Origin: a virus
IMG/VR virus record: IMGVR_UViG_3300037089_000131
DNA length: 63,019 nucleotides
Strand: one strand, 5' to 3'
Shown here: piece after piece, positions 30,871-31,162 of the stretch
How the letters are laid out: each line of letters starts with the position of its first letter
Position numbering within the stretch: position 1 is the first letter of the stretch
The notes under the pieces: generated by a model
What the model was told of the DNA's origin: nothing
The model's database searches: none
Seen by the model: only the letters and a program-made list of their open reading frames with translations
Position numbers and translations under genes: made by a program

Positions 30871-30900
30871 TGAAAATTACGACTACCGGGAGTATTATAT
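30871..30900 (+). promoter_or_regulatory. conserved promoter-like element P1 (TGAAAATTACGACTACCGGGAGTATTATAT)
   Basis: Matches the sequence at 61258..61287 at 25 of 30 positions; ends in an extended -10-like GTATTATAT. Confidence 0.5.
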
Positions 30901-30904
30901 GAGT

Positions 30905-31162
30905 GCAAGGCAGTACCGAAGTCTGTAGTTGACCGTTCCGTCCGCAGTTGAGTATGGCCGGGGGGTCTATTTCCAGCCCCCCGGTGCAGTCTCTTGAGGA
31001 AGAAATGAAGAACCTATCGTCCAACTCGTTATCGTCGCTGAGCTATAGTAACTCATTGCTTAGCGTCCTCGTGTTGTCCGATGGGTGGTCGGACGGTTGG
31101 GAAGGGTAAGACCACCAAAATCGGGCAAGACGAGGCCGCTGATGAAGCGGCCATTTTTGTTT
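30905..31162 (+). ncRNA. candidate ~250-nt non-coding transcript between P1 and a terminator, directly upstream of tRNA array 1
   Basis: No plausible ORF; strong hairpins (CCGGGGGG...CCCCCCGG, GGTGGTC...GACCACC); ends at GGCCGC-TGATGAA-GCGGCC + TTTTTGTTT. Confidence 0.35.
31134..31162 (+). terminator. rho-independent terminator
   Basis: GGCCGC/GCGGCC stem followed by ATTTTTGTTTGT. Confidence 0.55.

Follow-up and report, generated by a model that had tools for sequence, protein, structure and literature searches.

The 63,019-nt viral DNA of record IMGVR_UViG_3300037089_000131 (IMG/VR), hereafter called the window, carries two tRNA arrays, one made of Tyr, Leu and Ser tRNAs and the other starting with His, Trp and Arg tRNAs, and each is preceded by a unit made of a promoter, a structured stretch and an intrinsic terminator. 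We consider it likely that each unit is a multivalent ribosome-mediated (leader-peptide) transcription attenuator, predicted to provide a negative-feedback supply of tRNAs. This reading is built on the anatomy of the units, the match between leader peptide and array, the coding-type conservation of the leader, and alternative pairings with their covariation, all of which were observed. The first-pass annotation had described the stretches between promoter and terminator as hairpin-rich, mutually dissimilar, about 230 nt long and devoid of any credible open reading frame (ORF). Most of this description holds, as they measure 233 and 220 nt, resemble each other no more than shuffled sequences do (local score 11 vs. 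10.2 ± 1.5) and fold below shuffled controls (z = -3.9 and -3.8), and terminator-like hairpins with T-runs (31134-31162 and 61508-61542) abut tRNA-Tyr (31163) and tRNA-His (61546). The lack of an ORF does not hold: each unit contains a short ORF preceded by a Shine-Dalgarno (SD)-like sequence (31005-31109 and 61331-61477), matched to its array and with coding-type conservation in relatives.

In the proposed mechanism, a sigma-70-type promoter common to the arrays of this phage clade would start a transcript with a short ORF, in which codons for the amino acids of the downstream tRNAs are concentrated. When the matching charged tRNAs are plentiful, the leading ribosome would run through the ORF and melt an antiterminator strand embedded in it, upon which the terminator would form 24-30 nt past the stop codon and transcription would end before the first tRNA. 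When any matching tRNA is scarce, the ribosome would stall in the run of cognate codons, the free downstream segment of the ORF would capture the terminator 5' arm, and the RNA polymerase would read into the array. The expected outcome is an on-demand, negative-feedback supply of phage tRNAs that is multivalent, with 3 to about 10 amino acids per array. From this model we infer the transcription start, the translation of the ORF and its coupling to transcription, as well as the direction, size and kinetics of the response. Since the terminator T-run abuts the first tRNA, the array would have no promoter of its own and its tRNAs would be made only by read-through; an unconditional terminator directly before the first tRNA would make no sense.

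It had been proposed that the stretches are either discrete small RNAs or leaders gating the transcription of the arrays. The leader option is supported, and the view of a non-coding RNA is not, as it overlooked the leader peptide and the antiterminator overlapping the ORF; the gate is probably ribosome-mediated rather than an RNA-only element. A prematurely ended leader transcript would itself be a discrete RNA of about 250 nt, and the small-RNA proposal would describe this by-product and not the function.

Predicted Leader Peptides and Their tRNA Arrays

Related units precede arrays of four types, named here YLS (Tyr, Leu, Ser), HRN (His, (Trp), Arg, Asn, Phe, Pro, Gln(ctg), Lys, Met, Trp), ITQ (Ile, Thr, Gln(ttg)) and VGA (Val, Gly, Ala, Asp, Glu, Cys, (Ile-tat)), which jointly cover nearly the whole genetic code. 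Related contigs reach 317 kb and thus belong to huge phages. All ORFs were enumerated in every leader and the leader ORFs were picked from that list; a rule that took, for every frame, the final stop ahead of the terminator did not work in the HRN leaders and part of the ITQ leaders, as their ORF is followed by short frames containing stops. Every family has one ORF that closes shortly before the terminator, and this ORF is always built from the amino acids of its own array. Such leader peptides read MMRFRNPNPQMHWQPKRN... in the HRN-type relatives (array His/Arg/Asn/Phe/Pro/Gln/Lys/Met/Trp), MLTITMPHTQTQTTIS... in the ITQ-type relatives (Ile/Thr/Gln) and ...EVDVIAAVAAGCEGD... in the VGA-type relatives (Val/Gly/Ala/Asp/Glu/Cys).

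ORFs equivalent to those of the window are present in all 24 scorable related leaders, and in all 24 the fraction of own-array residues exceeds both the proteome background and the fraction for each of the three other amino-acid sets (P for own-set enrichment from 1e-10 to 9e-3). In the window, 19 of the 33 residues of the unit 1 leader are Tyr, Leu or Ser (background 0.17, P = 2.5e-7), with a cognate-rich run at codons 4-25 (31014-31079), and 32 of the 47 residues of the unit 2 leader belong to the amino-acid set of its array (background 0.37, P = 1.8e-5), the core of this ORF (codons 16-37, 61376-61441) being entirely cognate (22/22 residues). The match is specific to the reading frame: for arrays that are complete or nearly so, array-decodable codons represent 0.30-0.72 in frame vs. 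0.00-0.37 in the other two frames, and in unit 1, 18 of 33 codons can be decoded by the 9 array anticodons called by ARAGORN, vs. 0.12-0.15 in the other frames.

The leaders also sample the anticodons of their arrays. All distinct anticodons are read by at least one leader codon in 23 of the 24 arrays (simulated P of about 5e-4 to 3e-3 per family), and the rare ATA codon occurs in the leader where the array ends with tRNA-Ile(tat). A TCA codon in the unit 1 leader pointed to a tRNA-Ser(tga), initially missed by ARAGORN and found at 32847-32932 with a relaxed ARAGORN threshold and Rfam; once it is included, 10 out of 10 anticodons are sampled. Similarly, the unit 2 peptide contains Phe, Pro, Gln and Met residues as well as AGA/AGG codons that have no matching tRNA inside the window, the end of which interrupts array 2. 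The continuation of this array was read from contig L091, which is 100% identical across unit 2, and it runs Asn, Phe x2, Met x3, Pro (ggg, cgg, tgg, cgg), Arg(tcg), Gln(ctg) x2, Trp, Arg(cct), Arg(tct), Arg(cct). The prediction made beforehand from the peptide was thereby confirmed, as the added part supplies Phe, Met, Pro, Gln(ctg), Arg(tcg), Arg(cct) and Arg(tct). When the whole array is counted, 29 of the 47 unit 2 codons are decodable (P = 2.3e-4) and 15 out of 15 anticodons are sampled.

The way in which the leaders diverge is of coding type. Of 11 indels within the leader ORFs, 8 have a length divisible by three and the other three are located at the variable stop end; outside the ORFs, 5 of 17 indels have such a length. 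Homologs of the unit 1 leader differ by in-frame indels, and the unit 2 leader is separated from its homologs in L079, L080 and L081 by two 3-nt indels. The position of the stop codon is also constrained, as it lies 19-24 nt before the terminator stem in the 16 leaders, out of 25, for which this measure resolved it, the HRN and some ITQ leaders being outside these 16; in the window, the distance is 24 nt in unit 1 and 30 nt in unit 2. Altogether, it can be stated with very high confidence that the leader ORFs are non-randomly matched to their own arrays.

One ITQ leader (L061, 4460-4620) departs from this scheme, its ORF being apparently duplicated or split into MPDLMLLEAMMIAKPRTMPHITKPIDR, closed by a stop, and a GTG-started VTVPHITKPHTSTTTQIRSGGGACSG; it may be a variant or decaying attenuator.

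Predicted Terminator and Antiterminator Pairings

All families carry, toward the 3' end of the ORF, a segment that is able to pair with the terminator 5' arm and that often nearly repeats the terminator 3' arm, and the leader stop codon falls in or near the apical loop of the folded antiterminator. In unit 1, positions 31058-31068 (GCUUAGCGUCC) pair either with segment 1 (31036-31043) or with the terminator 5' arm (31134-31142), an arrangement that corresponds to the 1:2, 2:3, 3:4 layout of classical attenuators. In unit 2, positions 61447-61454 (CGGUGGGC) pair with 61508-61515 (GCCCACCG) in the nascent fold.

To follow the effect of translation, a ribosome footprint was moved along each ORF and the probability of the terminator, P(terminator), was computed from the constrained folds. 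With the ribosome at the end of the ORF, the terminator is predicted, and with the ribosome stalled at cognate codons, the antiterminator. In unit 2, P(terminator) is 0 for footprints at codons 1-36 and 0.55-0.71 at codons 38-46. In unit 1, a footprint on codons 10-14 lowers the equilibrium P(terminator) from 0.83 to about 0.3, and in the nascent transcript the capture of the terminator arm goes from 0.87 to about 0.45-0.55 after the ribosome has passed the cognate run. The switch is clear in the folds of unit 2 and of leaders L050, L021 and L011, the last three at equilibrium, and partial for unit 1. Covariation also points to these helices, since RNAalifold on nascent-length alignments recovers the antiterminators with 1 and 3 compensatory pairs, the three being those of the unit 1 consensus (6 homologs), and the unit 1 terminator stem shows a compensatory change in L002 (GGCGGCU/AGCCGCC).

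The hairpin module in the 5' untranslated region (UTR) of unit 1 is kept in L002 and L005 and absent from the subgroup formed by L050, L054 and L071; it is therefore dispensable for the core design. In L005 (7727-9420) and L008, both from IMG/VR, the Tyr-Leu-Ser leader is interrupted between this module and its ORF, shortly before the ATG, by a 1.4-kb insertion that carries an HNH homing-endonuclease ORF; despite the insertion, ORF, antiterminator and terminator are intact beside tRNA-Tyr.

Conserved ORFs with SD-like sites would equally be expected if the leader were translated and acted in the opposite direction or by another route, namely if translation promoted read-through or guarded the transcript against Rho or RNases, or if the peptide itself were functional, and the direction of regulation is taken from folding models only, which are ambiguous for some members. 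We nevertheless judge this alternative very unlikely. Indeed, with a stop codon 19-30 nt upstream of the terminator stem, a terminating ribosome would cover the antiterminator strand and could not mask the terminator. Moreover, the peptide varies freely in the antiterminator segment while the pairing is kept, and an array-matched composition would be required of a sensor but not of a functional peptide.

A Predicted Promoter Shared by the tRNA Arrays

The duplicated promoter-like motif noticed by the first-pass annotation lies where it was reported (30871..30900 and 61258..61287), and the two 30-mers agree at 26 positions of 30 rather than the 25 originally counted. Both copies were called sigma-70-like in a consensus scan (CTGAAA-17-TATTAT): the hexamers are separated by 17 nt and agree with 9 of the 12 sigma-70 consensus positions, the start site being putative. 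A 21-nt core, CGACTACCGGnnGTATTATAT, has exactly two copies in the 63-kb window, for an expectation of 0 (100 shuffles). The sequence GTATWATAT, mostly followed by gAGTG or AGA, is also found upstream of ordinary genes at 3392, 6710, 14112, 29494 and 48135, and hence represents a promoter type in general use by this genome. The CGACTACCGG spacer and the A/T tract occur in the window only at the two array promoters, and a tract equivalent to that of unit 1 is also present upstream of related array promoters.

The core was then scanned across public viral contigs and metagenome contigs, which gave 25 distinct genuine related copies. All 25 stand upstream of tRNA arrays, of the four types, and the comparison with related phages proposed at the outset thus speaks for a conserved motif. 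Chance matches in these scans are AT-rich and carry neither the upstream signature nor tRNAs. Among 185,579 bacterial and archaeal genomes, the core had five matches, attributed to chance as all of them lack both the upstream signature and downstream tRNAs; these are a negative control and no clue to the host. Conservation of the promoter across the 25 loci supports a function. A nucleotide search of GenBank phages returned tRNA matches only and no close relative of the window.

The CGACTACCGG spacer (30880-30889 and 61267-61276) is invariant over four array types whose leaders are non-homologous, with variants (TGACTATCGG and GAACTATCCG) in the remotest relatives. It contains a short inverted repeat, TACC-N3-GGTA, that overlaps the -10 element, and its invariance suggests a contact with a dedicated regulator or sigma factor. 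A second GTATTATAT promoter (window 29482-29714) is followed by a leader of about 200 nt, agctgacaggctagtgaagacgtttccggg..., conserved in relative L002 (1979-2330), which is possibly another structured 5' UTR; the ORF downstream of it (29715-30845) weakly resembles a major head protein (PHROG E = 2e-6).

A promoter and a terminator that delimit an RNA of about 250 nt, together with folds well below those of shuffled controls, would also suit discrete trans-acting small RNA genes, the arrays being then transcribed by incidental read-through and the ORFs being fortuitous or secondary. Terminated leader transcripts of classical attenuators can, in addition, act in trans. However, such small RNAs would leave unexplained why each of four leaders without mutual homology codes for a peptide that suits its own array, why indels are in frame, why the predicted tRNAs were confirmed beyond the window and why a copy of the terminator arm is embedded in the ORF. 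Furthermore, the 5' part of the RNA is dispensable in relatives and no Rfam family is matched, and we regard small RNA genes as very unlikely.

Comparison with Known RNA Families

The suggested covariance-model scan brought nothing except tRNAs in either unit: no other Rfam family was found in the window at the gathering threshold or in the two unit regions at E <= 10. At the same thresholds, there was no match to Trp_leader, His_leader, Leu_leader, Thr_leader, Phe_leader or T-box (RF00230). T-box, riboswitch and known leader families were consequently rejected as candidates. Although a highly structured RNA of about 230 nt ending in a terminator is typical of riboswitch and T-box leaders, we find it hardly credible that the leaders are untranslated and act as a riboswitch or T-box-like sensor of tRNAs or metabolites, or as an element of processive antitermination or tRNA-precursor processing, because even at E <= 10 neither T-box nor any other Rfam model matches, neither sequence nor structure is common to the leaders of the four array types, unlike what is expected of a family of RNA sensors, and their common feature is instead a cognate ORF at a fixed distance from the terminator.

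The Same Design in Caulobacter Phages

Phage CcrBL9 was found among GenBank phages with tRNAs like those of the window, and its leaders were recognized by hand inspection of scan matches. A scan of tRNA-rich phages with a 250-nt clustering rule split the window's own arrays, and its negatives carry no information. The loci concerned are 15773-15968 and 8318-8437 in CcrBL9 (L102, MH588546.1) and 1307-1468 in phiCbK (L109, JX100813.1). In unrelated sequence, CcrBL9 exhibits the design of the window, with cognate-rich ORFs, a terminator and an antiterminator upstream of tRNA clusters.

The first CcrBL9 leader, leader A, starts with a TTGACA-17-TATAAG promoter followed by the ORF MSKMYRQFVRQIQSVRVNRTGLSRMVDGGTFI, of which 13 of 15 core residues are cognate and which samples 7 of 7 anticodons. 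A 14-bp terminator stands 29 nt after the ORF, and further on come tRNAs Val, Ile, Val, Gln, Asn, Arg and Phe. The ORF holds an exact 14-nt copy (TCGGACGGGCCTTT) of the terminator 3' arm, and the free leader folds into the antiterminator (z = -5.4). The second leader corresponds to gp149, annotated as a 39-aa "hypothetical protein" (MTRIHTTLPTAKPASTGALTLASWPASSKPLLRHSAVLA), which samples 12 of 12 anticodons of the downstream Pro-Thr-Lys-Leu-His-Ala-Ser-Trp array and has 33 of 38 residues cognate to it (P = 1.4e-8). Tested against each other's array, the two CcrBL9 leaders were negative, and the small coding sequences of DSS3_MAL1 and of the CcrBL9 Glu-Asp pair showed no cognate enrichment.

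Leader A is conserved in 38 GenBank records from 29 distinct phages of Caulobacter and Brevundimonas, including phiCbK, where the leader ORF reads MSKTYRQFVRQIQVVRNIR... and where the record already annotates a "predicted rho-independent terminator" at the leader A site (JX100813 51465-51502). Its covariation was measured on eight sequences with 500 shuffles and slid-register controls. The terminator (3:4) has 99% of its cells paired and four pairs changed on both sides, its covariation score being reached by 0 of 500 shuffles; the antiterminator (2:3) has 97.7% of cells paired and two such pairs (1 of 500 shuffles), and the 1:2 hairpin 100% and one such pair (7 of 500 shuffles). Slid-register controls were paired at 66% at most. 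One position of the ORF (A/G) covaries with both arms of the terminator while the peptide goes from NRTGLS to NRAGRS and IRAGRS, a three-way covariation that is hard to explain otherwise. An antiterminator exclusive with the terminator thus appears well supported by sequence comparison in the phiCbK lineage.

Weighing the Attenuator Model

Several points weigh against leader-peptide attenuation. The whole case is computational, being made of sequence comparison and folding, and the coupling of transcription to translation in the host is assumed. For unit 1 and leaders L009, L075 and L010, the terminator is favored at equilibrium in most ribosome states and the switch is visible mainly in nascent-transcript folds; for L079, the footprint and equilibrium folds resolved no switch, and in the Val-Gly-Ala family the antiterminator overlaps the terminator only partly. 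Some leaders have weak SD sites. Covariation is thin in the clade of the window (1 and 3 compensatory pairs in 6-7 similar sequences), and in the phiCbK set about four sublineages contribute few independent events. A design with one codon per isoacceptor, going beyond the peptide itself, was not significant after synonymous redraw (P = 0.13-0.9 with the peptide fixed); isoacceptor-level codon design was dropped, and the signal is accordingly demonstrable at the amino-acid level only. Finally, a stall would equally signal a shortage of amino acids, against which additional tRNA is no remedy.

Feature Coordinates and Neighboring Genes

The features of the two units, the arrays and two enzymes of the window are listed in Table 1.

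Table 1. Positions of the unit, array and tRNA-repair features in the window
Feature	Position	Strand	Description
Unit 1 A/T-rich UP-like tract	30858..30868	+	ATAAAAATATT; upstream of -35; read from sequence
Unit 1 array promoter	30870..30900	+	-35-like CTGAAA 30870-30875; spacer CGACTACCGG 30880-30889
Unit 1 -10-like TATTAT	30893-30898	+	Within GTATTATAT; consensus scan
Unit 1 5' UTR	30901..31004	+	Strong hairpin GGCCGGGGGG 30956-30965 / CCCCCCGGTGC 30977-30987
Unit 1 SD-like GAGGA	30996-31000	+	Before leader ORF
Unit 1 leader ORF	31005..31109	+	34 codons + stop; predicted peptide MKNLSSNSLSSLSYSNSLLSVLVLSDGWSDGWEG, beginning MKNLSSNSLSSLSYSNSLLSVLVLS...
Unit 1 segment 1	31036..31043	+	CGCUGAGC; Ser-Leu-Ser codons; candidate anti-antiterminator, pairs with segment 2 (folds)
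Unit 1 segment 2	31058..31090	+	GCUUAGCGUCCUCGUGUUGUCCGAUGGGUGGUC; antiterminator 5' strand, in 3' part of ORF (nascent-transcript folds)
Unit 1 segment 3	31110..31142	+	Antiterminator 3' strand, including terminator 5' arm GGCCGCU 31134-31140
Unit 1 intrinsic terminator	31134..31162	+	GGCCGCU-GAUGA-AGCGGCC + AUUUUUGUUU; ends one base before tRNA-Tyr (31163)
tRNA array 1	31163..33123	+	Tyr x2, Leu x6 (taa, gag, gag, tag, cag, caa), Ser x4 (gct, tga, gga, cga)
Unit 2 array promoter	61245..61287	+	A/T tract 61245-61256; CTGAAA 61257-61262
Unit 2 promoter spacer	61267-61276	+	CGACTACCGG
Unit 2 -10-like TATTAT	61280-61285	+	
Unit 2 SD-like AGGA	61322-61325	+	Alternative ATG at 61325
Unit 2 leader ORF	61331..61477	+	48 codons + stop; predicted peptide MELPERRVTRTFRQERQMRNRKPNPMQWQHKRNNFRPSYGGPPFAGVA, containing ...RQMRNRKPNPMQWQHKRNNFRP...
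Unit 2 antiterminator 5' strand	61447..61464	+	CGGUGGGCCUCCGUUCGC; ORF codons 39-45; GGUGGG repeats terminator 3' arm
Unit 2 antiterminator 3' strand	61486..61515	+	Including terminator 5' arm GCCCACCG 61508-61515
Unit 2 intrinsic terminator	61508..61542	+	GCCCACCGG-loop-UCGGUGGGU + UUUUUGUUUU; ends 3 nt before tRNA-His (61546)
tRNA array 2	61546..63019	+	Stopped by window end; His, Trp, His, Arg(ccg), Arg(acg) x2, Asn, Lys(ctt) x2 (ARAGORN)
Polynucleotide kinase (Pnk)	6961-8058	+	PHROG 505, E = 5e-65
T4 Rnl1-type RNA ligase	9210-10667	+	Pfam E = 8e-12

A weak HNH-endonuclease ORF, the Pfam match of which scores under the gathering threshold, interrupts array 1 at 32118-32600. In array 2, a tRNA-like sequence at 62492-62567, between Asn and Lys(ctt), scores 36 bits with the Rfam tRNA model and was not called by ARAGORN. 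In ITQ arrays of relatives (L007 1620-1980 and L013-L021 3001-3360), a conserved ORF of about 120 aa (MAKFEQHC...) lies between the attenuator terminator and the first tRNA-Ile; it is DUF6915-like (26.4 bits for a cut-off of 27) and, from its position, would be co-regulated with the array.

In T4, polynucleotide kinase and the Rnl1 ligase form a pair that repairs nuclease-cut tRNAs. The presence of both genes in the window suggests that this phage faces attack on host tRNAs, and such a heavy investment in tRNA availability fits an on-demand supply circuit. Directly after array 1, an 823-aa ORF (33461-35932, minus strand) resembles the Major Vault Protein shoulder (E = 1.5e-23) and carries vault repeat domains, which is unusual for a phage.

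Relation to Known Attenuators

Ribosome-mediated attenuation entered the textbooks about 45 years ago. In Enterobacteria, amino-acid operons are controlled by the leader-peptide attenuators trpL, hisL, leuL, pheL and the multivalent thrL (Thr, Ile) and ilvL (Leu, Val, Ile), which combine a promoter, an SD-led short ORF with regulatory codons, an intrinsic terminator and exclusive 1:2, 2:3 and 3:4 pairings. The phage units resemble them in having the regulatory codons in or just before segment 1, in being multivalent as thrL and ilvL are, and in the Gly/Ala-rich C-terminal codons of the leaders, which are due to the GC-rich stem arms that they encode. On the contrary, the phage units would control tRNAs instead of biosynthetic enzymes, so that the quantity sensed would be the product itself; their valency is far higher, with up to about 9-10 amino acids and 15 anticodons per leader; and they are phage-encoded, with four attenuators that use one common promoter and address nearly the whole code. 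They have no sequence or covariance-model similarity to the leader families of Rfam.

Leader-peptide attenuation of a gene of the translation apparatus is exemplified by the pheM leader of E. coli pheST, which encodes the Phe-tRNA synthetase. In this case the product is a protein and the control monovalent (Phe), whereas the products of the phage units are the tRNAs themselves. T-box riboswitches follow a similar logic, as they read a specific tRNA pool and switch between terminator and antiterminator before translation-related genes, but they bind uncharged tRNA directly, without a ribosome, by means of Stem I, a specifier loop and the T-box sequence, none of which was detected in the phage units. 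The tRNA clusters of T4-like and other large phages are comparable in that HNH-interrupted arrays occur alongside tRNA-repair enzymes; to our knowledge, no leader-peptide control has been described for them.

We likewise know of ribosome-mediated attenuation only for amino-acid biosynthesis and a few synthetase operons. The genes downstream of the window leaders are tRNAs, outside the biosynthetic and aminoacyl-tRNA synthetase scope of the described attenuators, and this is what is new relative to known leader-peptide attenuators. No earlier description of leader-peptide control of tRNA genes was found in the literature, including that on CcrBL9, a result that is suggestive only as most subscription journals were outside the search.

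Implications for Large Phages

If tRNA genes are truly attenuated in this way, the circuit would feed back directly, its product being the very molecule that is sensed, and unit 2, whose 48-codon leader would read up to 15 anticodons, would surpass every known attenuator in valency. We lean, with less assurance than for the individual units, toward a more general view in which large phages possess a "tRNA homeostat". In this clade, it would consist of four multivalent attenuators under one dedicated promoter, covering nearly the whole code, by which the host ribosome would test the pool of charged tRNAs isoacceptor by isoacceptor and the replacement array would be transcribed only upon shortage; the design would be independent or very ancient in at least two unrelated lineages, including that of phiCbK. 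Such shortages could be triggered by host shut-off, by codon-usage mismatch or by anticodon-nuclease attack.

The model can be tested at the bench now, as phiCbK and CcrBL9 grow on Caulobacter crescentus. It also yields a rule for annotation: a short "hypothetical protein" or "intergenic terminator" before a phage tRNA array may be a leader peptide, the composition of which predicts the content of the array. More broadly, these units bear on the reasons for which large phages encode tRNAs and on the timing of their use. From the design it follows that phage tRNAs would be conditional spares switched on by translational stress rather than constitutive boosters of codon usage, a role that fits the co-encoded tRNA-repair enzymes.

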